A stretch of DNA of 64,000 nt from the NCBI GenBank assembly GCA_965227295.1, contig OZ245742.1, positions 128,001 to 192,000 of the forward strand, read 5' to 3'. Below are positions 2,394-15,986 of this stretch, piece after piece. Both the position numbers and the translations under genes were made by a program. The DNA comes from Leptonemataceae bacterium (GTDB lineage: Bacteria; Spirochaetota; Leptospiria; Leptospirales; Leptonemataceae). The stretch's first letter is position 1; every line of letters begins with the position of its first letter. The notes beneath the pieces are model-generated. The model was not told where the DNA came from. It was given only the letters and a program-made list of their open reading frames with translations, and did no database searches.

Positions 2394-3314
2394 TCACGGC
2401 TCCACGGGACTACCGGCTTCGAAGCGACCTTCCTGCACGGTGCCATCTTTGTAGATGAGTTTTCCCTGGCCGTGAAACTCGCCGTTTTCGAACTGACCCT
2501 CGTAGCGTAGATAACGAATAAACGTAGACGGATAGAGAATCACACCGTATCCGTGGTACTCGCCGTTTTGAAATTCGCCCGTGTACCGCCGGCCGTCGCG
2601 ATAGGCGTACGTGCCGCGACCATGCGGCAGGCCGTCCTGAAACTCGCCGGTGTAGATGTCCCCGCCGGCCTCGGGCTTTTTGAGTGACCCGGAGTACATG
2701 ACGCCCTCACGCATCTCACCGTCCCGCCATTCACCGACGAAGCGCCGGCCGTCCGGCCACACGCAGAGCCCGCGTCCGTGCATAGAGTTGTCGCGAAACT
2801 CACCGATATATCGAAACTCGAACGGGTCCAGCGACCCCTCTAACACGCGCTCATAGAAACCTACGCCCGCGAAGGATCCGTCGCGCATTTGTCCGTAGTA
2901 GTGCCGCCCGTCCTCGGGATTGTAGTACTCGCCGTAGCCGTCGCGTTCATTGTCTTCCCACGTCCCGGCGTAGTATTCGCCGGATTCTTCGCCCAGAAAT
3001 CCGTAGGCGCCGAAGCCCTCGGCTTTATCGTTCGTATACTGGCCGGCATAACGTGATTGTTGCGACGGTAGTTCGTAGATGCCGTAGCCGTCGCGTTCCC
3101 AGCCGGTGAACGTTCCGGTGTAGATGTCGCCCTCGGGATCGACAAGAACGCCGTGAACCGGCGCGCCGTCTTCGAAGATGGCGCGGAGGACGGAGCCGTC
3201 CGCGTACTCGTAGACGCCCTGGCCGTTGGTGCAGTTGCCCTCGGTACACTCGCCGGCGGGGGGGATAGTGCAGGAGAGAACGAGAAAGATGAAAACGGTG
3301 GTAGTAAGGCGCAT
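2394..3314 (-). CDS. Exported MORN-repeat protein
   Basis: Many YxGxF/WxxGxxxGxG repeats; CTEGNCTNGQG motif; likely start MRLTTTVFIFLVLSC at 3314 (ORF track extends to 3389). Confidence 0.85.
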   Translation of the reverse strand: MRLTTTVFIFLVLSCTIPPAGECTEGNCTNGQGVYEYADGSVLRAIFEDGAPVHGVLVDPEGDIYTGTFTGWERDGYGIYELPSQQSRYAGQYTNDKAEGFGAYGFLGEESGEYYAGTWEDNERDGYGEYYNPEDGRHYYGQMRDGSFAGVGFYERVLEGSLDPFEFRYIGEFRDNSMHGRGLCVWPDGRRFVGEWRDGEMREGVMYSGSLKKPEAGGDIYTGEFQDGLPHGRGTYAYRDGRRYTGEFQNGEYHGYGVILYPSTFIRYLRYEGQFENGEFHGQGKLIYKDGTVQEGRFEAGSPVEP

Positions 3315-3388
3315 GAGTTGAGGTTCTAGACTGGTGGCTCTTGCGATTTCTTCGAGTGACATACCGGCTGTGACAATGGCCCAATCCA

Positions 3389-4039
3389 TCAGCGATCTGA
3401 AAGAAGAATAACTTTCTCCTCAATCATTTCAGGCACAAGTTCTGTATCCGCCATCAAATCAGTTTTCCACATACGACGTTCACCAAACCCCGTGAAAAAA
3501 GTCCCAAAGCACAAGCCCGCTCCGGTTTCCGTTGCCAGGTGTAGACCGCAATGAGCGTCATACTGGTCTACCGGCCTGAAATCGTGCCGGACTGTGATAA
3601 GTTCTACGCTGGTAATTTTTTTTCCAATTAAGCCCCGAAGGTATTCGTCCCCGGCGGAAGGATATCCCGACAACGATACCTTACGCGAACTCCCGACCAA
3701 CTTCTTCTTCATCATAGCCTGCAGCAACGTCGGCGTCGGACTCCAATGAATGATCGTTGTCAGAAGGATCAAAAAGTGGTACAGCGCAACTTCATAGGTC
3801 TCCGTCTTCACAACGAGCATGTGCGGTAGATCCCAGAGTAAACCATCTTTTCGCCCACTGCTTTCCTGGAACTTGTCGAGTTCGACGTCGACGTCAAGCG
3901 TCCCTCCGATGCGGGAGAGATCCACAATGCGCTGGCCTCGCAAACGTCCGAGTTCTTGCTGCACCTCGCGTAGTTTTCTCCAGCCGAGCCTTTGCCATTC
4001 AGGCAAAGCGCTGAGCGCCCAGTCTAGATCAAGCTCCAT
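3389..4039 (-). CDS. Putative immunity protein of the upstream polymorphic toxin
   Basis: 216-aa ORF starting 10 bp after the toxin stop, same strand, with the same AT-richer composition as the toxin tip; no known motif. Confidence 0.6.
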   Translation of the reverse strand: MELDLDWALSALPEWQRLGWRKLREVQQELGRLRGQRIVDLSRIGGTLDVDVELDKFQESSGRKDGLLWDLPHMLVVKTETYEVALYHFLILLTTIIHWSPTPTLLQAMMKKKLVGSSRKVSLSGYPSAGDEYLRGLIGKKITSVELITVRHDFRPVDQYDAHCGLHLATETGAGLCFGTFFTGFGERRMWKTDLMADTELVPEMIEEKVILLSDR

Positions 4040-4048
4040 CGTCGTCCA

Positions 4049-7000
4049 TTATCTCGGGAACCCCATTTCGTCCAGAAACGCGTTGATGCTGATGACGTTA
4101 CCACTTTTTCCTGGTTCGAACCCGGCTGCCATCTCCAGAGGGTCGCTAAGAATAAATTTCCTTTGCTTCTCGTCGTAGAATCCCTGAAGATCTTGAACCG
4201 TCAAACCTTCTTTATCAAACGAATCTCGAAGATCTTTCAGACTTTCCAGGAATTTCTCTCTGGCCTCGGGGGTGGGTAGCTTCGCACTATCCTCAAAAAA
4301 TTCCTTCAAACTATGTTTACTGAATTTAAGGTGTGTAGCCGGATCGACGTAGTCCATAACATATCCATAGCAGGTTTTTGCAGGGATACTCGTCGGGCAT
4401 GGAGTCGATCTCGCGACGGCCTCAAAGTTAACGACTTCTATGTTTTTCATCCCCTCCACATGATTACGAAGTTTCTTGAGATTCGCTATTTCCTCGCCGA
4501 TCAGCCGTAGCGCGTCGTCTTCTGCCAGATACAGTGGATTCTTGACCACGCCGAGAACTTTGCCCGGTTGCCCTTCAATCTTATAGACGTTCTTATAATG
4601 GCCATTGCCCTGCCATCCGGCATCGGAAACAGTACCCCGAAGTTTCTTGAGGGTGATATTTATTCCGCTGGCGAGACATCGGATACATCCAGAACTACTA
4701 CTGCTATTCTGATTATGCACCAACCACGCCGCGTCCCCCGCGAAGTAGTTGTGATCCCCTGCGACCTCGATGTTGTAGATCGGCTCACTTCGTTCCAGTT
4801 GCCGCGCCTTGATGGACTGAATCGCGGCAAGTTCACCGTCGATGGGCCGCAGGCGATCGCCGACCGTAAGGTCTTTCGCGGCCACCCACACGCCGCGTTC
4901 TTCCATCCAGAACGGGTGGTTATCCGTAACGGTGAGCGTATCTTCGCCGACACGGATCTCGTACCAAACGAGCGTAATGTCGCGGAAGACGTGCGTAACC
5001 TTCTGCTCACGCGGGGAGCCGGTGGCGGTGTCATAAGCGATGACGCTGTCGCCGACTTCCAGGTCGTCAATCTTGCGCTGCCCGTCCGGCGTTAAGATCG
5101 GCGTACCGGAAATTAAGCAACTCGAACAGGACTTGCACGGCAACACGCCGATCTTATCCAGTTTCGCCCGGCCTTTCTCGACGATCTTGCCGGCGACCGC
5201 GCCCACGCCTTTCGCGGCGGCGCCTTCGAGATAGTTCCCGATGCGCGTGCCGCTGGCCATACTCCAGGCACCCATGACGGCGGTGAACGGATCGCCCTCG
5301 CGTGTGCCGGTAACCAAATCGGCGACGCCGACGAAGCGGCCGAGCACCTGCCCGATCGCCGGGTTCAGATTGATCAACGTGCCCAGGATCGGATCGCCGC
5401 CGAGGTCGGAGGTCGACTTCATGAACGAAAAGAATTTCTCGGAATCCAGCGGATCATTCAGGAAGTTCGTAAGTTCATCGCGAAACTCGCGGACACGCTC
5501 GGCCAGTTCACCCGGTGCATCGGTAATGGCCTTCAGGATCGACCGGCCGACTTCCACCGCGTACTCAAGGTATTCATCAACGAGACCTTGTTCCCGCTCG
5601 CTCTGCCTGGAATTCTCGTAACCGGCAAGACGATCGTCCACGGCGATGTTTTCTTCCGCTTCCGCCTTGAGAGCTTCCCGCAATTGTCGCTGCAACGCGA
5701 TGCGCTCGGTTTGCATCGTCTGAAAGTGCTGTTGATATTTCAGGATGTTGCGGCCGACGGCGGACTCGTGTAGAAAATCCGTAACTACGGCGTCGAATTC
5801 CCTCGGTTTTCCGTTATCCCCGTTGATGGACGCTTCCACGCGCCAGGTAAACAGCGTATCGCTGAGGCCCGCGTCATTGAGCAATCGCTCATAATCCTCG
5901 AGCGCAGTATCCTGAATTTCATCTTTCGAGAGAAGGCAACCTACCTTTGCCCGGCACAGCTCCGCGGCGAGATCCTCCCTGGCGTCGCGCACGTATTCCA
6001 GAAGCGCGGGCTCGGGTTCCCGGCCTTCTTGCCTGGCCCTGGCGATATCCCTTTCTTTTTTCTGAATAAGATCTACGAAAGAACCGAACGGCATTACACC
6101 GCCGCTCAGGTAGCGGTCGGTGTGCTCTTCGCTGTAAGCAACATCCTGGATGTATTTGTAGAACTCCGGCTCGTACGTATCCTTACCCGGAGACACTTGA
6201 TTGGACTGACTCGCGCCCGCCGCCCGATAGATATCGAAGTGCGCAATGCCGACCTCGCTTTCATCGAAGATGCGATCATAACAGGCCATCTGCGCGAGCA
6301 GAGCCTCCGATCCCGCACCGGACTGAGACCGGCATTCCTGCATCACACGTTCGATGTTTGCAAGATTGTCCGGCGTAACCTCGTAAGTTTCGCGCAGTTG
6401 CTGTTTGTAATTTTCCGATCCGCGTTCCGTAACCGGGCTACCGCCGCCGGCTACTTCACCGCCTTCCGGTGGTTCCACGACGATGTCGCCGGGATTGTAG
6501 CCGCCGTCAGTAGCGCCGCCGTCGGAATCGCCGTTACCAAACCAATCATCCCAAACACCGGCCACGTCGTCCGGCACGCTACCGAACGGCTCATCCCCGA
6601 ACGGGTCCAGGTCCACGTGATCGCCGGGATTCTTGAACAGATCTTCCAGTTCGTCGATCTGCTTCCCCAAATCTCCGAGCTGCCGGAACTCGTCGGCTCG
6701 CTGCTCCAGATCTTCCGCGACCTTATCCAGGTACGGACTCGACAACCCGTCCCGATCGTTATAATCGAACAGGTCCTCTTTCTTTCCGGACAGGTTTGCG
6801 CCCCAGCCGTCTTTCGAATCATAACCGAACGAAAGATCGCCGACCTTTTGCTGAAAACCACCGGACCAGCCGTCCTGCGCATCGTAACCGGCAGTATAGC
6901 CGGCGCCGTCGAAGCTCGCGGACAAACCATTCGTCTCATCCCAGCGAATCTTACCGTCGCCGGTAAGAAGATCGTGTACACCTTCGCCGCCCGTGGAGAA

Positions 7001-10000
7001 ATCCATCTGGGCACCGAAGCCGGCGCGTTCATTGTACGTGAGCGCACCGTTCACATTGCCGACGTCGTTCTCACCTTCGAACGTAAGCGCGCCGGTGAGG
7101 CCGGCATTCTCATTCCAGCCGAGCCCTAACTGTCCCGTGCCGACACCACCGGCGTCGAGGCCGTAGCCCAGGTTCACCCCGAACCCCGTCTCATCATTAT
7201 AACTCAGCCCGACTTTCACACCGCCGCTGGAATAACCGGCGTTGATCGAATTGCCACCGCGCTCGCTGACGTTAAAACCGATGCTCAGTCCGTCGCCCTG
7301 GCCGAGTCGACCGTACGCCCCCGCGCCGTTCTTATCGCTGTAACTGATGCCGACGCTGCCGTAATCACCGCCGACGCCGATGCTCGCGCCGAAGCCGTCC
7401 GCGTGCGTATACGAAACACTCGCATCAATGCCGACGAGCTGCGTCGCCATCAACGCCGTGTCGGCCATGCGCGCCACCGAGCCGAGTTCACCGCCTTCGT
7501 AGTAACCCTTCTGTGCCTGATAGCCGTACCACAGACCGGGATTGTTCGTCATCATGGACGCGCTGAAGGCGGTCGCATCCATCAACATGGGATTGTCGTA
7601 AAACGTATCGGCGAGCGGTTGGGCGATGCCCGGGCCGAACATATCGTTCGAAGCCGCACCGACAAGGCCGCCCATCGCCGCGCCGGCCAGCATGCCGATG
7701 GGACCGAGGGCCAGGCCGGCCATGGCGCCGAGGCCGCCGCCCATGGTCATGGACGCCATGGAGTTCGCGAGTTTACCCGTGGGACCGTTGCGCGCCGCCT
7801 TCGCGGCCATCTTCTTCTTAAGTTCACCTGTAAGTAAGCTACCGAATCCTTTGATGCCGGTAATGCGATCGATCTCGCTGCCCACCACCTGCCAGGCGTA
7901 ACCCTGCATCGCTTCTTCGACACTCGCGCCACCGAGCAACGCCGACACGAAACCCGCGGGAATGCCGGTCATCGTTTCCCAGTGCGCGGCGATATCGCCC
8001 ATGATCTGATTCTTCGCGTAATCAATGAAGGCGTCGCCGGCGCTCATGCCCCCGGCCATGGAAGTCATGAGCGACTTCAACATCGAAAACAGTTGCGCCT
8101 GATCTTGCTTCGCCTGGGACGAGAGCTTTTCGCCGAGTTGTTTCGAAGCGTGCGCCGTATTCATGCGCGCCTGCGCCGCGCTGAGCCAGTTCGCGGCGCC
8201 GTCGTAGAAAGCCTGCTTCACGGCCTCGCGTTCCGCCTGCACGGCGCCGAAGTCCCACTGTTCAAAAAGATCCCCGCCGGAAACGAGTTTCAGCGCTTCC
8301 GGCGGGGCGATGCGTACGATCTGCTCTCGCTGCACGGAGTCGTAGCCCGTGGTGCTCGTCAGGTCGCCGCCGTTCCAGGCGACCTGTCCGGTATCCACGC
8401 TGCGGTGCGCCACGACCGTGCCGTCGTCTAAAATCTTCACAGAAAAGTTCATGCGCGCCTGGCGTTCGAGGCGCTGTTGCATCTCCTCGTCGGTTTCCAG
8501 GCGCGTCGCCGAGGCGTTCTCCCAACCCGCCGGACGCAGCAACACCGGCACGTCCTCGTACGGATTGTACTCCACCTCCTGGCGCTCGTTCTGCACGTAG
8601 TCGCGTGACAGTATGGAATAAGCTTGATCGATCAACTGATCGCGCAGCTGTTCGGCTTCGTCGGCGACGGTGCGCGCGTAGGTGAAATTCAAGAGGCCGT
8701 TCAGTGAAGTATTCAGAGAGCCGGCCGCATCCTTGAGCAGACTCATGTCCGGCAGATTCGAACCGGGCTCGGTTGCCAGGGAATCGGCGTGTTCGCGCAG
8801 GCCGGTTGCGTCGCTGCTAATTTTCACTCGCTGAACATTAGCGGATTGCGCGGCGGTGACGAGTTGCGCCAGCTCCTGCGGCAGGCCCGCGTCCGAATCC
8901 TCGAGCGCCAGGGCCTTCGCCGCGCGGCGATCTTCGACATCGTCCCAGCGCGCCGAAGCATGCAAGAAATCCCGGCGTGTATCCTCGAACCAGGCGTCCC
9001 GCTGCGCCGTGATTTCGCTGCGACGCTGCGCATATTCCGCCGTCGCCTGAGAACGTACAGCGTCGGCCTCGGCCTGCCAGGCGGAATAATTGGCCGCGTA
9101 AGAACTGCTCTGCGCTTCCCAGGTTTGCAGCGCGGGCAGCAAATCATCCTGCCACTGCGTGATGACCGGATTCAGATCGTCGACGTACCCCTGCCAGGTG
9201 TCGGCGTTCGCCCGGGCGTTGTTGTCCGTGAGAACGTATGTGACCTCGAACTGAATGAACTGCTCCGGAACGAGATAGTACGAGACCGGATACGACGGAT
9301 CGCCGCACGGATCCAGGCGATTGTAACGAGTGATGCCGAAACAGCCGAACACCGTATGCATGAATGCGCTGTAGCGCTGGTCTCGCGTTTCGCCGATCTG
9401 GCGAAAGTAGATACCGGCGTCGGAGTACGAAAAGACGTTCGTCCCCGCATCGCTGGAGAGCGGCGGGTATGAGGGAGACCAACCGGCCGCGTAAGTACTG
9501 CTGATGGCAATGTCCAGGTGATCGCCGTAACCGCCCAACGAACGCAAGAAATCCAGCAACGGTTGCCGGTTGCCTTTCAGGTCCTCGACGATCGTATACG
9601 CTTCCTGGTACTCCCAGGGCATCACGTTCGGATCGCCCGCGGCCTTGTAGTACGACTGCGCGGCGTCCACGTTCACCCGATCGGCCCAGACCTGGCTCGT
9701 CGCCTCGGCCTCGGTGCGCCGGGTTTCCATGTAGCTCAGAATATTCGCGGCCACGGCGGACAGCGGATCGCCGTCGGCCAGGGCGCCGCGGACGTCACCG
9801 ATCAATTGCGCTAAGTCCTGCCCGGCGGCATTTAAGGTCGAGCCGTCCACGTCGCAATGATTGTCGGAGTCGCAGCTTTCCTCGTGAAACAGACCGCTGC
9901 TGTTCAGAAAAACTTCCATCTGATCCACCGTCGCCGCGATGGAATTGCGGACGTCCTGTTCGAGCTGCTGCATCACGCTCAGGTTTTCTTCGAACAGAGC

Positions 10001-10684
10001 TGCCTGACGTTCCAGTTCGGCCAGGGTGGATTGATAGTCCGCGTCGAGGGCGTTCAGTGCGTCGGCGAATTCGCCCAGACCGGCGCTCGCATCCGCCCGA
10101 AAGCGTTCTTCCCAGGCCCGACGCAGTTCTATTAACTCATCTTCCGTAAGACTTAGCGAGGTTTCGTCTTGAGCGCGGCGTTCTTCGCGCTCCGCCTCCG
10201 TAAGCGCGGCCTGCGCATCGTCACCGGCGCTTTGCTCTTGTTGCGCGGCCAGATCGTTCAGAAAGGCGGCGCGCTCCGCGGCGAAGTAAGCGTCGGCTTC
10301 CAGTTCCCAGGCGGCGAAGGCGCTGCCCTTTTGGACGTCCAGTTCCGCGCGCAGATAGTCGCGATAGGCGTCCACGTCGTGCACGGCATCCGAGGCACTG
10401 ACGCTCGCCAGGTAACCGTCAATCTCGGCGTCGACGGCGGCTTCCCACTCCGCCGCGAGGACGATGCGCCCTTCCCGGACAATCGCCTCCCAATCCCTGA
10501 TCGAAGAACTGACGGCGGCCCGGCCGCCCAGGCTGGAAAGGCCGCCGGGGTCGGTCGGCGGCGGTGTCAGTTCCGGAAGCGGCTGGGCCGGCAAACGCGA
10601 GAACGGGGCAACGGTCCAGGCGAGTGTCGTAACGACCAGCACCGCGGCCATCCATCGTTTGTGAAGAGTCCGGTTCTTGTTCAT
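4049..10684 (-). CDS. Large secreted polymorphic toxin (TIGR04388-like N-terminus, Hint domain, C-terminal kinase-like domain)
   Basis: 2211 aa; signal peptide, coiled-coil region, glycine zipper, Gly/aromatic beta repeats, Hint domain CLISGT...LVHN, divergent tip of about 220 aa. Confidence 0.85.
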   Translation of the reverse strand: MNKNRTLHKRWMAAVLVVTTLAWTVAPFSRLPAQPLPELTPPPTDPGGLSSLGGRAAVSSSIRDWEAIVREGRIVLAAEWEAAVDAEIDGYLASVSASDAVHDVDAYRDYLRAELDVQKGSAFAAWELEADAYFAAERAAFLNDLAAQQEQSAGDDAQAALTEAEREERRAQDETSLSLTEDELIELRRAWEERFRADASAGLGEFADALNALDADYQSTLAELERQAALFEENLSVMQQLEQDVRNSIAATVDQMEVFLNSSGLFHEESCDSDNHCDVDGSTLNAAGQDLAQLIGDVRGALADGDPLSAVAANILSYMETRRTEAEATSQVWADRVNVDAAQSYYKAAGDPNVMPWEYQEAYTIVEDLKGNRQPLLDFLRSLGGYGDHLDIAISSTYAAGWSPSYPPLSSDAGTNVFSYSDAGIYFRQIGETRDQRYSAFMHTVFGCFGITRYNRLDPCGDPSYPVSYYLVPEQFIQFEVTYVLTDNNARANADTWQGYVDDLNPVITQWQDDLLPALQTWEAQSSSYAANYSAWQAEADAVRSQATAEYAQRRSEITAQRDAWFEDTRRDFLHASARWDDVEDRRAAKALALEDSDAGLPQELAQLVTAAQSANVQRVKISSDATGLREHADSLATEPGSNLPDMSLLKDAAGSLNTSLNGLLNFTYARTVADEAEQLRDQLIDQAYSILSRDYVQNERQEVEYNPYEDVPVLLRPAGWENASATRLETDEEMQQRLERQARMNFSVKILDDGTVVAHRSVDTGQVAWNGGDLTSTTGYDSVQREQIVRIAPPEALKLVSGGDLFEQWDFGAVQAEREAVKQAFYDGAANWLSAAQARMNTAHASKQLGEKLSSQAKQDQAQLFSMLKSLMTSMAGGMSAGDAFIDYAKNQIMGDIAAHWETMTGIPAGFVSALLGGASVEEAMQGYAWQVVGSEIDRITGIKGFGSLLTGELKKKMAAKAARNGPTGKLANSMASMTMGGGLGAMAGLALGPIGMLAGAAMGGLVGAASNDMFGPGIAQPLADTFYDNPMLMDATAFSASMMTNNPGLWYGYQAQKGYYEGGELGSVARMADTALMATQLVGIDASVSYTHADGFGASIGVGGDYGSVGISYSDKNGAGAYGRLGQGDGLSIGFNVSERGGNSINAGYSSGGVKVGLSYNDETGFGVNLGYGLDAGGVGTGQLGLGWNENAGLTGALTFEGENDVGNVNGALTYNERAGFGAQMDFSTGGEGVHDLLTGDGKIRWDETNGLSASFDGAGYTAGYDAQDGWSGGFQQKVGDLSFGYDSKDGWGANLSGKKEDLFDYNDRDGLSSPYLDKVAEDLEQRADEFRQLGDLGKQIDELEDLFKNPGDHVDLDPFGDEPFGSVPDDVAGVWDDWFGNGDSDGGATDGGYNPGDIVVEPPEGGEVAGGGSPVTERGSENYKQQLRETYEVTPDNLANIERVMQECRSQSGAGSEALLAQMACYDRIFDESEVGIAHFDIYRAAGASQSNQVSPGKDTYEPEFYKYIQDVAYSEEHTDRYLSGGVMPFGSFVDLIQKKERDIARARQEGREPEPALLEYVRDAREDLAAELCRAKVGCLLSKDEIQDTALEDYERLLNDAGLSDTLFTWRVEASINGDNGKPREFDAVVTDFLHESAVGRNILKYQQHFQTMQTERIALQRQLREALKAEAEENIAVDDRLAGYENSRQSEREQGLVDEYLEYAVEVGRSILKAITDAPGELAERVREFRDELTNFLNDPLDSEKFFSFMKSTSDLGGDPILGTLINLNPAIGQVLGRFVGVADLVTGTREGDPFTAVMGAWSMASGTRIGNYLEGAAAKGVGAVAGKIVEKGRAKLDKIGVLPCKSCSSCLISGTPILTPDGQRKIDDLEVGDSVIAYDTATGSPREQKVTHVFRDITLVWYEIRVGEDTLTVTDNHPFWMEERGVWVAAKDLTVGDRLRPIDGELAAIQSIKARQLERSEPIYNIEVAGDHNYFAGDAAWLVHNQNSSSSSGCIRCLASGINITLKKLRGTVSDAGWQGNGHYKNVYKIEGQPGKVLGVVKNPLYLAEDDALRLIGEEIANLKKLRNHVEGMKNIEVVNFEAVARSTPCPTSIPAKTCYGYVMDYVDPATHLKFSKHSLKEFFEDSAKLPTPEAREKFLESLKDLRDSFDKEGLTVQDLQGFYDEKQRKFILSDPLEMAAGFEPGKSGNVISINAFLDEMGFPR
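4712..5119 (-). other. Pretoxin Hint (BIL/intein-like) autoprocessing domain, 136 aa
   Basis: Block A CLISGTPILTPDG, block B LTVTDNHPFW, block F/G IYNIEVAGDHNYFAG...WLVHN; the next residue is Gln. Confidence 0.92.
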
Positions 10685-12817: not shown

Positions 12818-14158
12818 CTAAGCCACTAACTTCTCGTGCGCGCTGCTTAACACGGCCCCCGCCGCCGCTCGGGCCGAGGCGCAGGCCGCGTCCGCCAGCA
12901 TGCCCTCGTCGCCGGCCCAGTCACCCGCAAAAAAGATCCCCGGCACTTCGTCCCAAACCACCGCCGGCCGACCCGCGAGGCCCCCGCGCCGGTAGTCCGG
13001 CAGACCGTGGGATACAGTCATCTTCGGCAGGAACTGCTCCGCCTCGACGTCGTCCCGCCAGCCGGGGGCCAGACGATCCATAAGGTCCTCGATCTCCCCG
13101 CGCCAGGCCGCCGCATCGCCGCCTTCGGCGTGCGAAAGATACTTCGCGGCGTGCAACATGATGCGCCCCTCCGGCTGCAAGCGCGCGGCGTACGAATGCA
13201 CCGAAAAGTACAGGTTGCGATCGAAGTCCAGGGTCACGGCCGTGCGCTCGCTTAACTTAAGCAGACCCAGATCTAACGAAGCCAGCCGCGCCGGCACGAG
13301 ATCATCGAACGCGGACGGCACCGGCAAATCCCCCGCGCGCAGAATCCGCGCGATCACCGAAGGCGCACAGGCGAAGATCACGGACGCGGCGCCGTAGGCT
13401 CGACCATCGTCGCCATCGCCCGAAAGCACGAAGCCGCCGTCTACAGACCGCCGGAGCGCCGCTATGCCCGTACCTTCACGCAACTCCACGCCGGCGGCAA
13501 CAACCGCCGCGCGCAGATTCTCCACAAAACTCTGCCAGCCATGATCGACGTAGTACACCCCGCCCGCGGCCATACGCATTTGTTTGATCGCGGCGTCGGC
13601 GCTGAGTACGTCCATATCCGCGGCATAGGTGGAGAGTCTCGCAATGCCCTCGAGGAACGCGCGGGCCACGGGCGAGGCCGTGCGTCGTTCGACCCAGGTG
13701 CGAAAGCTTTCGAACCGACGTTGCTCCGGATTGTCGCGGAAGATGGCGGCATAACTTTTCAAAATACCCCACTTGTCGTGCAGACTCATGCGACCGTTCA
13801 TGAGAATCGTGGGCGCGGAGTACGGCAGATCATACAACTCCCCGCTTTGAATGAACCGACTGCCGGCAATGCCCGGCAACTTACCGGACCAGTCAATGTT
13901 CAGCTCTTCCAGGATCCGGCGCGCCGCGCCGTCTTTGTACAGGGCGTGCGGGCCGAGATTCATCACGAAACCGTTGCGTTGTTTGCTGCGCGCCCGACCG
14001 CCGACGTCCGTACTGCGTTCGAACAACGTAACCTGTCGACCGGCGCGCGCCAGGTAGAGCGCCGCCGTTAAACCGGCCACTCCGCCGCCGATCACCGCGG
14101 TGCGGCCCGGCGCGTTGCCGTTGCTTTCTAAAGATTTTTTTGAATTCCGGTGGACCAT
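12818..14158 (-). CDS. FAD-dependent oxidoreductase (phytoene desaturase/amine oxidase-like)
   Basis: AVIGGGVAGLTAALYLARAG...FERSTDVGGRA Rossmann motif; FFAGDW; GGAGG RBS before the ATG at 14158. Confidence 0.88.
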   Translation of the reverse strand: MVHRNSKKSLESNGNAPGRTAVIGGGVAGLTAALYLARAGRQVTLFERSTDVGGRARSKQRNGFVMNLGPHALYKDGAARRILEELNIDWSGKLPGIAGSRFIQSGELYDLPYSAPTILMNGRMSLHDKWGILKSYAAIFRDNPEQRRFESFRTWVERRTASPVARAFLEGIARLSTYAADMDVLSADAAIKQMRMAAGGVYYVDHGWQSFVENLRAAVVAAGVELREGTGIAALRRSVDGGFVLSGDGDDGRAYGAASVIFACAPSVIARILRAGDLPVPSAFDDLVPARLASLDLGLLKLSERTAVTLDFDRNLYFSVHSYAARLQPEGRIMLHAAKYLSHAEGGDAAAWRGEIEDLMDRLAPGWRDDVEAEQFLPKMTVSHGLPDYRRGGLAGRPAVVWDEVPGIFFAGDWAGDEGMLADAACASARAAAGAVLSSAHEKLVA

Positions 14159-14183
14159 GTTCCAACCTCCTGTCACAGCGAAT

Positions 14184-14210
14184 GTCGAAACAGGAGCGCA
14201 GACTGTGACA
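14184..14210 (-). promoter_or_regulatory. ECF41-type promoter driving the oxidoreductase-sigJ unit
   Basis: Minus strand reads TGTCACA-N16-CGAC; ECF41 consensus is TGTCACA-N16-CGTC. Confidence 0.7.
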
Positions 14211-15986
14211 TCATCCGAAAAAAAAATCACATCGTTTTTATTGAGCATGATTCTACCGCCCCTGCTCTTCGGCGCGGCCTGCTCGGGTTCTCAGGAGCGC
14301 GGCGGTGTCGACCCGGGCGAGGGCACGCCGCAGGAATCGACGAACGGTTACAACCTGGAAGGAGCGGCCTTTCGTACGCTGGAGGGCATCGTCGACACGC
14401 GCCGCAGCGGCGAGGCCTGCGAACCCGGTTGCGTCTCCGGCGACTGCGAGAACGGCGGCGGAACCTACGTCTATCCCAACTGCGCGGCCTACGCCGGCGG
14501 CTGGTCCGCGGGTCGCCGTAGCGGAGCCGGCGCGCATCTCTACGAAAACGGCGACCGGTACGCCGGCGGCTTCAAAGACGACCGGCGCGATACCAGCGGC
14601 AAGGCCGACGCCCTCTACGGCTTCGCGTCGGGGGATCGTTACAACGGCGCTTTTCGGGACGGTCGGCCCACCGGTCAGGGGACGTATACTTTCCAGGACG
14701 GCCGTGTGTTCCGCGGCAACTTCGATCAGAGCGGCACCGGCACCGGCACGCTGAGCCTGCCGGATGGCGGCAAACGCGACTGCACGTTGCGCGGCGCCGT
14801 CCTCGATTGCGCGGAGCCGGCGAAGACCACAAAGCCCGCTGAGACCGAAGCAAAGAAAACAGAGCCCACCGACAATACCTCCGCGTTCGTTCCGGACCGC
14901 GGCTACGTACTCGTGCTCTACGCCCCGCAGGATGCCGTCGTAACTCGCAACGGCAAACAGTTAAGCACCGGCGCCGGCATGGCCCTGTATCCCGGTGACA
15001 CCATCGAATCCCGGGCCACACCGGTGGAGCTCCAGGCCCGGGACGGCGTGGCCCTGCGCCTGCGTCCGTTTTCCATTCTCTACATTCCGCCGGACGCCAA
15101 TCAAAGCCGTACGCTCATTCTCCGCCAGGGCGGCGTGCTCGCGGACTACGACTCCGAAAAGGGTGATCCGCCGTTCCGCATCAAAGCCGCCGGTGCCAGG
15201 TTCGATGTGGACGGCACCACCTTCGTCGTGGAGATCGACGGCGAAAAAGGCACGGCGAAGGTCCGCGTTTTGGAGGGCCGGGTTCGCATGCGTCCGGATG
15301 TGGAAGCCCTGGAGGAAGCGCGCAAGGAAGCCGCAAAGAATCCCGACAGTCCCGAGGCCCAGGCCGCTTTGATTGCCGCCGAAGAAGCCGTCAAAGCCGC
15401 CGAGGTGAACGTCAGTGAAAACGAGGAGGCCGAGTTCGACGAGGCCGACCAGCGCCGCACGAAAGACCTGAACGAGGCCGTGCAGGAAATCCGCAACGCC
15501 CGGGAAAGCGGCGCCGACTCCGGAGCCGCGGCGGAAAGTCTAACTTCCGCCGCCGAACAGTTAAAGAATGCACCGCAGACCGAACCGAAAAAGTTCGAAC
15601 CGGACCCGCGCGAAGTCGGCGAACGTCGACTCATCATCTCGGTGGACAACGCCATCTTCAATCGCGCCCTGTCCGAGCAACGCGGCGGCAAAGAGGCGTC
15701 GGCGAGTACGCGGGATCGCGTCGGCAAGGCCTACGACGAGAGCCTGGACAAAGCCGCGAACAAACTCGAGCAAGACCTGGCCGATCCGAGCATAAAAACC
15801 CGTGAAGACCTGCTCAAACGGTACGAAATTCTGGAAATCGTTGTCTTTCGCAACGGAGACGAAAAGGCCGGCTCCATCGTCGCGCAGGCGGGAGAGATTT
15901 TGATTCTGCACGCCCTGGATGGAGTCTTCCGCGTAAATCGCGATGAGATCAAACACGTGGACTTTTTGGATGTAGAGCAGGAATAA
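14205..15986 (+). CDS. MORN-repeat plus FecR-domain lipoprotein (LipL45-like)
   Basis: GTG start 8 nt after AGGAG; lipobox FGAAC; MORN repeats; FecR-like LYPGDTIES...VDGTTFVVE...VRVLEGRV. Confidence 0.8.
   Translation: MTSSEKKITSFLLSMILPPLLFGAACSGSQERGGVDPGEGTPQESTNGYNLEGAAFRTLEGIVDTRRSGEACEPGCVSGDCENGGGTYVYPNCAAYAGGWSAGRRSGAGAHLYENGDRYAGGFKDDRRDTSGKADALYGFASGDRYNGAFRDGRPTGQGTYTFQDGRVFRGNFDQSGTGTGTLSLPDGGKRDCTLRGAVLDCAEPAKTTKPAETEAKKTEPTDNTSAFVPDRGYVLVLYAPQDAVVTRNGKQLSTGAGMALYPGDTIESRATPVELQARDGVALRLRPFSILYIPPDANQSRTLILRQGGVLADYDSEKGDPPFRIKAAGARFDVDGTTFVVEIDGEKGTAKVRVLEGRVRMRPDVEALEEARKEAAKNPDSPEAQAALIAAEEAVKAAEVNVSENEEAEFDEADQRRTKDLNEAVQEIRNARESGADSGAAAESLTSAAEQLKNAPQTEPKKFEPDPREVGERRLIISVDNAIFNRALSEQRGGKEASASTRDRVGKAYDESLDKAANKLEQDLADPSIKTREDLLKRYEILEIVVFRNGDEKAGSIVAQAGEILILHALDGVFRVNRDEIKHVDFLDVEQE

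Follow-up and report, generated by a model that had tools for sequence, protein, structure and literature searches.

The C-terminal tip of a giant protein from a Leptonemataceae bacterium (Spirochaetota; Leptospirales) is almost certainly a minimal kinase of the HopBF1 type by fold and homology. HopBF1 is a kinase that Pseudomonas syringae and Ewingella americana use as a type III effector (PDB 6PWD, 6PWG, 8HOE). The tip is encoded in a 64,000-nucleotide stretch of the genome (NCBI GenBank assembly GCA_965227295.1, contig OZ245742.1, positions 128,001 to 192,000 of the forward strand; hereafter the window), in a gene for a protein of 2211 residues that also contains a TIGR04388 region and a PT-HINT pretoxin autoprotease domain. 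A kinase at this position had been proposed from the DNA sequence by a model (hereafter the original prediction). The tip is probably an active kinase, and the data as a whole are best explained, with fair confidence, by a HINT-released, ATP-dependent HopBF1-like protein-kinase toxin of a TIGR04388-type giant protein.

Sequence profiles link the tip to HopBF1

The tip and its key residues are located in the window as follows.

4052..4711, (-) strand: HopBF1-like minimal kinase tip, residues 1992-2211, 220 residues (profile against PDB, AlphaFold2 model, Foldseek, VIA-align)
4592..4594, (-) strand: Lys2031, tip residue K40, within GNGHYKNVY; pairs with the Lys of GAGSQKDVF in HopBF1; presumed to bind the phosphate of ATP
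4190..4192, (-) strand: Asp2165, tip residue D174, within VQDLQ; pairs with the Asp of IEDLQ in HopBF1; presumed to be catalytic
4142..4144, (-) strand: Asp2181, tip residue D190, within ILSDP; pairs with the Asp of LINDP in HopBF1; presumed to bind metal, as the equivalent of the DFG Asp

Two profiles, one of 5 tip sequences (A2) and one of 7 (A4), were searched against 177,635 PDB sequences. HopBF1 was the sole significant match: E values with the 5- and 7-sequence profiles were 4.3e-7 and 3.4e-7 for 8hoe_A, and 5.2e-7 and 3.8e-7 for 6pwd_A, and the next matches, which are unrelated, were at E 1.5 and 0.0053, respectively. The match to HopBF1 spans chain positions 17-175 and 32-190, that is, about 160 of 176-204 residues. 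Three pairs of motifs stand out in the profile alignment.

Window GNGHYKNVY, HopBF1 GAGSQKDVF
Window VQDLQGFYD, HopBF1 IEDLQFLVD
Window FILSDP, HopBF1 VLINDP

The statement in the original prediction that DLQ...DP fits HopBF1 best thus agrees with the alignment, in which TVQDLQ...ILSDP is paired with IEDLQ...LINDP. The six motifs quoted there (QGNGHYKNVY, VLGVVK, EEIANLKKL, GYVMDYV, TVQDLQ and FILSDP) are all found in the translation in the order given, and the short C-terminus is likewise present, with 30 residues following the DP.

Counted along the alignment, K2031, D2165 and D2181 fall at 6pwd_A chain positions 43, 156 and 171, which would be the catalytic Lys and the two Asp reported for HopBF1 by Lopez et al. 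2019. In the family alignment, all six full-length members have K2031, and neither Asp varies in any of the 7 sequences; the three residues are thus retained among members of just 22-28% identity.

The assignment of the remaining N-lobe residues differs in part from that originally made. The Lys of VLGVVK had been taken as the beta3 Lys, and this does not hold: by our reading of the alignment, the column contains Lys in three members, Thr in one and Arg in at least one, and is gapped in the sixth. HopBF1 appears to have an Arg near this position in the profile alignment. As the VLGVVK column is variable and the Lys of HYKNVY is kept, the phosphate-binding Lys is most likely K2031. For the alphaC Glu, the string EEIANLKKL is present as described, but the assignment of the Glu within it is ambiguous: the alphaC column, with Glu in two members (L007 and L004), is occupied by Asn in the protein of the window, and the two Glu residues of that protein are located 3-4 residues earlier.

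Predicted structure of the tip

The best AlphaFold2 (AF2) model of the tip, calculated from a 7-row alignment, has a predicted local distance difference test score (pLDDT) of 73.7 and a predicted template modelling score (pTM) of 0.70; the five models from this alignment reached pLDDT 73.7, 72.6, 69.0, 61.0 and 52.7. A model from a 5-row alignment had pLDDT 44 and was left out of the fold search. The first ~20 residues of the tip form a low-confidence linker with a CxxC motif.

A kinase fold is predicted, with HopBF1 as the top match. The best Foldseek matches in the PDB were 6pwd (E 1.0e-7, TMt 0.72) and 6pwg_A (E 1.7e-7, TMt 0.75), followed by CK2, JAK, other protein kinases and NleH2, with 114 matches at E <=0.001. 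By VIA-align, 6pwg_A was aligned over 172 of 175 residues with a Z score of 16.5 and a root-mean-square deviation of 3.2, and 6pwd had Z 15.8; next below HopBF1 were Rio2 (Z 10.9) and OspG (10.7), and Bud32/PRPK, aminoglycoside phosphotransferases (APH) and COQ8 were also matched. Profile and predicted fold therefore both place HopBF1 nearest among the minimal kinases, ahead of OspG, NleH, RIO and eukaryotic kinases, as had been anticipated. The structure 6PWD was released in 2019, presumably after the AF2 training cut-off, so the model would not be a memory of it. In a language-model atlas, the three nearest named clusters are kinase-like (YrbL-PhoP_reg, APH and Phage_T7_kinase; scores 0.92-0.94), which is taken as a lead only.

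Distribution of the tip family

Six-frame searches of 42 genomes of the same Leptospirales family identified six full tips and one fragment, in four genomes. In the genome from which the window derives (G000; 5.94 Mb, one contig), three paralogues end in a related tip: proteins of 2405 residues (5.12 Mb), 2521 residues (5.07 Mb) and 2652 residues (5.10 Mb). The members outside G000 are a giant frame in G002, a genome of the same genus, a 587-residue protein in G008 and a 68-residue orphan C-terminal fragment in G027. The window tip shares 25% identity with that of the 5.12-Mb paralogue over 195 residues (E 5e-7). The tip was found in none of 400 further genomes of the phylum; of the 401 genomes searched, the single match was the window's own genome.

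More distant relatives were sought in several ways. Five family members compared with Pfam at E values up to 10 matched no kinase family. The 5-sequence profile matched only the G008 member among longer proteins (406-2000 residues; 7999 scored candidates) and none of 5387 candidates of near length. A pattern search based on a 3-row alignment gave 87 pattern matches in genome contigs, one of which is a relative, at the G027 locus, and 95 pattern matches in metagenome contigs, with no relative among them.

On one metagenome contig (L029 1894-2568, -), a stand-alone 224-residue Cys-rich protein with a signal-peptide-like start contains GSQK...DFQGVLEFATGHFFVADP. Its alignment with the profile of the family extends from alphaC as far as the DP motif, at an hhalign probability of 94%, a score that is inflated because the protein was chosen by the motif itself; no immunity homologue was seen adjoining. 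In G027, the end of another toxin-like open reading frame (ORF) and then a 156-residue ORF are located just upstream of the orphan kinase fragment (L005 2-1473, +), and these ORFs and the fragment together resemble a polymorphic toxin cassette array.

The giant carrier protein

The carrier includes the following elements.

4049..10684, (-) strand: giant polymorphic-toxin gene, 2211 residues (ORF list, translation, TIGR04388, PT-HINT); stop codon at 4049-4051
9674..10609, (-) strand: best TIGR04388 (Lepto_longest) stretch, residues 26-337 (NCBIfam E 2.3e-75)
4712..5098, (-) strand: PT-HINT pretoxin autoprotease domain, residues 1863-1991 (Pfam E 1e-13); G000 132712-133098

From the N-terminus to the C-terminus, the protein consists of a hydrophobic leader, the TIGR04388 region, a Gly-rich middle, PT-HINT and the kinase tip. 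The N-terminus preceding the TIGR04388 stretch is signal-peptide-like as judged by eye (MNKNRTLHKRWMAAVLVVTTLAWTVAPF...). PT-HINT has a Cys at its start (near CLISGTPILTPD) and His-Asn at its end (WLVHN); as the domain ends at residue 1991 with this sequence, the tip starts directly after it. The presence of PT-HINT and of TIGR04388 'Lepto_longest' in the same protein supports the original view of a tip located behind a Hint domain on a spirochaete-type giant protein.

Such carriers are numerous in G000: TIGR04388 is matched 24 times, in 14 open frames, and PT-HINT domains, also 14 in number, have tips of 152-524 residues behind them. The kinase tip is present on four giant proteins, in three of them behind HINT; the 2521-residue frame has no PT-HINT match. 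Of the 11 remaining HINT tips, two match DUF6973 and nine have no Pfam family above the cut-off. The window protein has the architecture of a polymorphic toxin, with a long carrier region, a pretoxin HINT domain and a C-terminal variable domain, and the tips vary among paralogous carriers within the genome, as in polymorphic toxins.

Several observations concern the arrangement of the carriers. At 5.066-5.127 Mb of G000 (C1), at least five TIGR04388 giant frames (1930, 2521, 2089, 2652 and 2405 residues) are clustered within ~60 kb, and three of them have a HopBF1-like tip at the end. At 2.280-2.296 Mb, three shorter HINT-plus-tip frames, of 592, 682 and 558 residues, are located behind a TIGR04388/HINT gene for a protein of 1862 residues; this array resembles orphan toxin cassettes, and two of the tips match DUF6973. 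A CxxC motif (GCIRC, NCIAC, DCLAC) is found just after the terminal His-Asn of HINT in the window (4670-4711, -) and at loci L013 and L014, so that three HINT-bearing members have it at this linker position; the 5.12-Mb paralogue has a single Cys there. A scan for promoters and terminators yielded nothing of use: no site resembled a promoter, and terminator-like sites numbered 13, where 9.8 would be expected.

The presumed immunity gene and its neighbour

Two genes follow the toxin gene on the same strand.

3389..4039, (-) strand: presumed immunity protein, 216 residues; start 9 nucleotides past the toxin stop
2394..3389, (-) strand: MORN-repeat protein (MORN E 3.6e-34); lipobox-like LVLSC after an internal Met

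A homologue of the 216-residue protein, of 211-235 residues, is encoded directly behind 7 of 7 tips, including the G027 fragment. A profile of 8 such proteins gave 10 matches in 5 of the 42 family genomes. The four copies in G000 each adjoin one of the four kinase tips, and the three paralogues share 14-22% identity with the copy in the window. G008 has three copies in tandem, the third with an in-frame TAA; in G027, the immunity gene beside the 68-residue tip fragment is intact; and the copy in G030 is an orphan, with no recognisable kinase upstream. A downstream partner gene with tandem and orphan copies is among the usual marks of toxin-immunity pairs.

The guanine-plus-cytosine (GC) content is 0.476 in the tip and 0.515 in the immunity gene, compared with 0.602 in HINT, 0.61 in the rest of the giant gene and 0.597 in the MORN gene. 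Tip and immunity gene thus show cassette-like exchange, as seen in this GC shift and in the orphan modules of G027 and G030.

The family has few recognisable relatives. The 216-residue protein has no meaningful match in Pfam and no match in NCBIfam. A word-indexed search of 5.8 billion proteins yielded three proteins, all from the same genome, and the language-model atlas returned unnamed clusters only (recognition 1630, below the mark of 2300). None of 8 aligned immunity proteins has a hydrophobic leader, and the family therefore fits with a cytoplasmic inhibitor of an ATP-requiring toxin. A complex prediction of the tip with the downstream protein scored 0.01 (mark 0.32); it was made without controls, and nothing is drawn from the score.

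A MORN homologue is located behind the immunity gene in four kinase-tip loci, namely the window, L002 3-1019 (-), L013 2742-3530 (+) and L014 2-883 (-), and the N-termini of the four proteins contain lipobox-like sequences (LVLSC, LLLAC, TLLTC and AVSHC). The protein may be an accessory or a second protective factor of the giant toxins. The GC content of its gene is genome-like, unlike that of the cassette. Elsewhere in the window, a 628-residue ORF (14100-15986, +) has N-terminal MORN-like Gly/Tyr repeats that by eye resemble those of the 2394-3389 gene.

Proposed mechanism and alternative explanations

In the mechanism that we propose, the giant TIGR04388-type protein would be exported via Sec, and PT-HINT, with its first Cys and terminal His-Asn, would cleave off the tip. 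The freed tip might then enter the cytoplasm of a target cell, where it would bind ATP via Lys2031 and the metal-binding Asp2181 and phosphorylate a target protein on Ser/Thr, with Asp2165 as the presumptive catalytic base. In the producer and its kin, the kinase would be blocked by the 216-residue product of the next gene. The original prediction had named competitors or eukaryotic hosts or predators as targets; the data lean towards competitors, because the adjacent immunity-like gene is conserved, tandem and orphan copies exist and the cassettes are of low GC. We regard it as rather likely that the tip and the downstream protein are a toxin-immunity pair used against bacteria.

Several results weigh against this proposal. 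As a single sequence, the tip matched only Flg_hook in Pfam (E 0.031, below the cut-off) and nothing in NCBIfam; phmmer found only weak, unrelated PDB matches (PDIA3 and tubulin cofactor A, E 0.019-0.57) and, among 1.84 billion representative proteins, only the tip itself and one WD40-repeat protein, a match judged spurious. The link to HopBF1 depends on a profile of 5-7 sequences at ~33 bits, and the structural model on a 7-row alignment, from which the two lowest of the five models scored poorly; the low pLDDT of the 5-row model is a further adverse point. Within the tip, the canonical position of the beta3 Lys varies among members, the place of the alphaC Glu is uncertain, and there is no Asn five residues past the catalytic Asp, an acidic residue being found at +6, as in HopBF1. 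The presumed immunity role is read from synteny, and no delivery or secretion machinery was identified. Moreover, as HopBF1 can be made in E. coli and acts on eukaryotic HSP90, homology to it implies no bacterial target.

This last point bears on an anti-eukaryote function, in which the tip would phosphorylate the ATP pocket of HSP90 in protist predators or a host, and the downstream protein would be a producer-side inhibitor or chaperone. In HopBF1, the sole characterised relative, the kinase target is eukaryotic HSP90, of which it phosphorylates a Ser within the ATPase domain, and toxicity is seen in both yeast and plants (PMC9950578); HopBF1 has been produced in E. coli for purification (10.1101/2025.03.20.644192); the MORN-repeat genes linked to the tip loci point the same way. 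We nevertheless consider such a function unlikely, given the tandem immunity copies, the truncated orphan tip with its intact immunity gene and the orphan immunity gene in a fifth genome. Tandem and orphan immunity modules are typical of interbacterial polymorphic toxin systems. In addition, the four paralogous tips of G000 each have their own immunity gene, and the divergence of these genes suggests an arms race between bacteria.

The producer's own HSP90 complement also argues against an anti-eukaryote effector. PF00183 (HSP90) has no match above the cut-off in the producer genome (best E 0.0065), and the sole HSP90-family gene of G000 (C1 5216872-5218719; L028 1459-3306, +) encodes a strongly divergent protein of 616 residues, which matches NF003555 at E 3.9e-46 and 158 bits, below the 371-bit HtpG cut-off, and has TRAP1 and HtpG as its best PDB relatives. 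The producer thus has just a divergent HSP90-family protein, yet retains the immunity genes. An HSP90/HtpG-type target is conceivable for the tip, and the data speak neither for nor against it. By analogy with HopBF1 acting on HSP90, the tip might kill rivals by phosphorylating the ATP pocket of an essential GHKL-type ATPase, candidates being an HtpG-like chaperone, gyrase B, MutL or a histidine kinase; a new kinase-inhibitor immunity family would shield kin, and HopBF1 of plant pathogens would have been domesticated from an older kinase of bacterial warfare. This extended scenario is speculative and distinctly unlikely as a whole.

A kinase-fold enzyme might instead have another substrate or chemistry. 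It could phosphorylate a small molecule in the manner of APH-type enzymes, for example a nucleotide, a lipid or a precursor of the cell wall, or it could transfer nucleotides, by AMPylation or otherwise. Structure matches at Z ~10 include aminoglycoside phosphotransferases, COQ8 and inositol-phosphate kinases, APH is among the atlas leads, and the catalytic loop DLQGFYD is devoid of the usual protein-kinase Lys and Asn; kinase-fold proteins with other chemistries are known, such as SelO and SidJ (PMC9950578). However, by far the nearest relative has been proven to be a protein kinase and has the same DLQxxxD...DP loop, and the remaining kinase-like families are 5-6 Z units below HopBF1, which makes this explanation improbable. 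The domain might also be dead or decorative, either as the scaffold of a pseudokinase or as a non-catalytic domain that resembles kinases by chance. This would be in keeping with the absence of a match to any curated model and with the non-conserved beta3 Lys. It is highly improbable in view of the three residues retained despite the low identity among members, of a profile E value and fold Z score well over background, and of the location of the tip where a polymorphic toxin has its toxic domain, with a dedicated gene downstream.

Significance and comparison with known systems

In the literature consulted, HopBF1-type kinases otherwise feature solely as free-standing type III effectors by which eukaryotic HSP90 is silenced. 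No description of the tip family or the immunity family was found in the literature searched, and TIGR04388 is not mentioned there. No papers tying HopBF1-type kinases to polymorphic or antibacterial toxins were found by a search that covered few subscription journals, and a search for a kinase toxin in an interbacterial context gave only unrelated work. The setting described here is different: the minimal kinase is an exchangeable warhead, predicted to be freed by HINT, on giant toxins of spirochaetes, each accompanied by a presumed immunity gene. If the tip is active, polymorphic toxins would kill not only by way of nucleases, deaminases, ADP-ribosyltransferases and NADases but also by protein phosphorylation. 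The downstream family would offer natural protein inhibitors for minimal kinases, and the tip a clue to the origin of effector kinases such as HopBF1, as well as a first way into the function of the TIGR04388 'longest protein' family, which is uncharacterised in Leptospirales.

OspG and NleH are type III secretion system effectors of enteric pathogens with canonical kinase motifs. OspG and NleH1-2 (4Q5H, 4BVU, 4LRK) share with the tip a truncated kinase fold of like size (OspG, Z 10.6-10.7; NleH2, Foldseek E 2.8e-4), but are ~6 Z units under HopBF1 and show no sequence-level signal with the tip.

The sole kinase tip found in the 2012 polymorphic-toxin catalogue is Tox-Peptide Kinase, a predicted Ser/Thr kinase tip of polymorphic-toxin-related proteins (Zhang et al. 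2012, PMC3482391). This is of the lantibiotic-synthetase type (DxH, YKP[KR], DxHxEN), occurs in Firmicutes, is associated with PVC export and has no immunity protein listed there; none of these traits applies to the Leptospirales tip.

PT-HINT toxins (Rhs, TIGR04388-type and LXG, among others) have the same organisation as the window protein, with a trafficking region, HINT, a variable tip, an immunity gene (presumed in the window) and orphan cassettes, but the tip and immunity families described here match no Pfam family.

The closest counterpart of the tip is HopBF1. Both are minimal kinases of ~175-200 residues with an N-lobe and only the beginning of a C-lobe, and share the motifs G-x-G-x-x-K-x-V-[FY], D-L-Q-x-x-x-D and h-h-x-D-P, the last of them ahead of a short terminal helix. 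They differ in that the tip has ~13-14% identity to HopBF1 in the structural alignment, the link going undetected with a single sequence, and in that HopBF1 is a stand-alone type III effector of a host-associated proteobacterium, whereas the tip is the C-terminus of a giant protein from free-living-type Leptospirales genomes and, unlike HopBF1, is paired with a dedicated downstream protein family. The tip is thus a HopBF1 homologue and a new architectural variant, not a HopBF1 effector, because it is a domain of a 2211-residue Sec/TIGR04388/PT-HINT protein of Leptospirales rather than a stand-alone type III effector.

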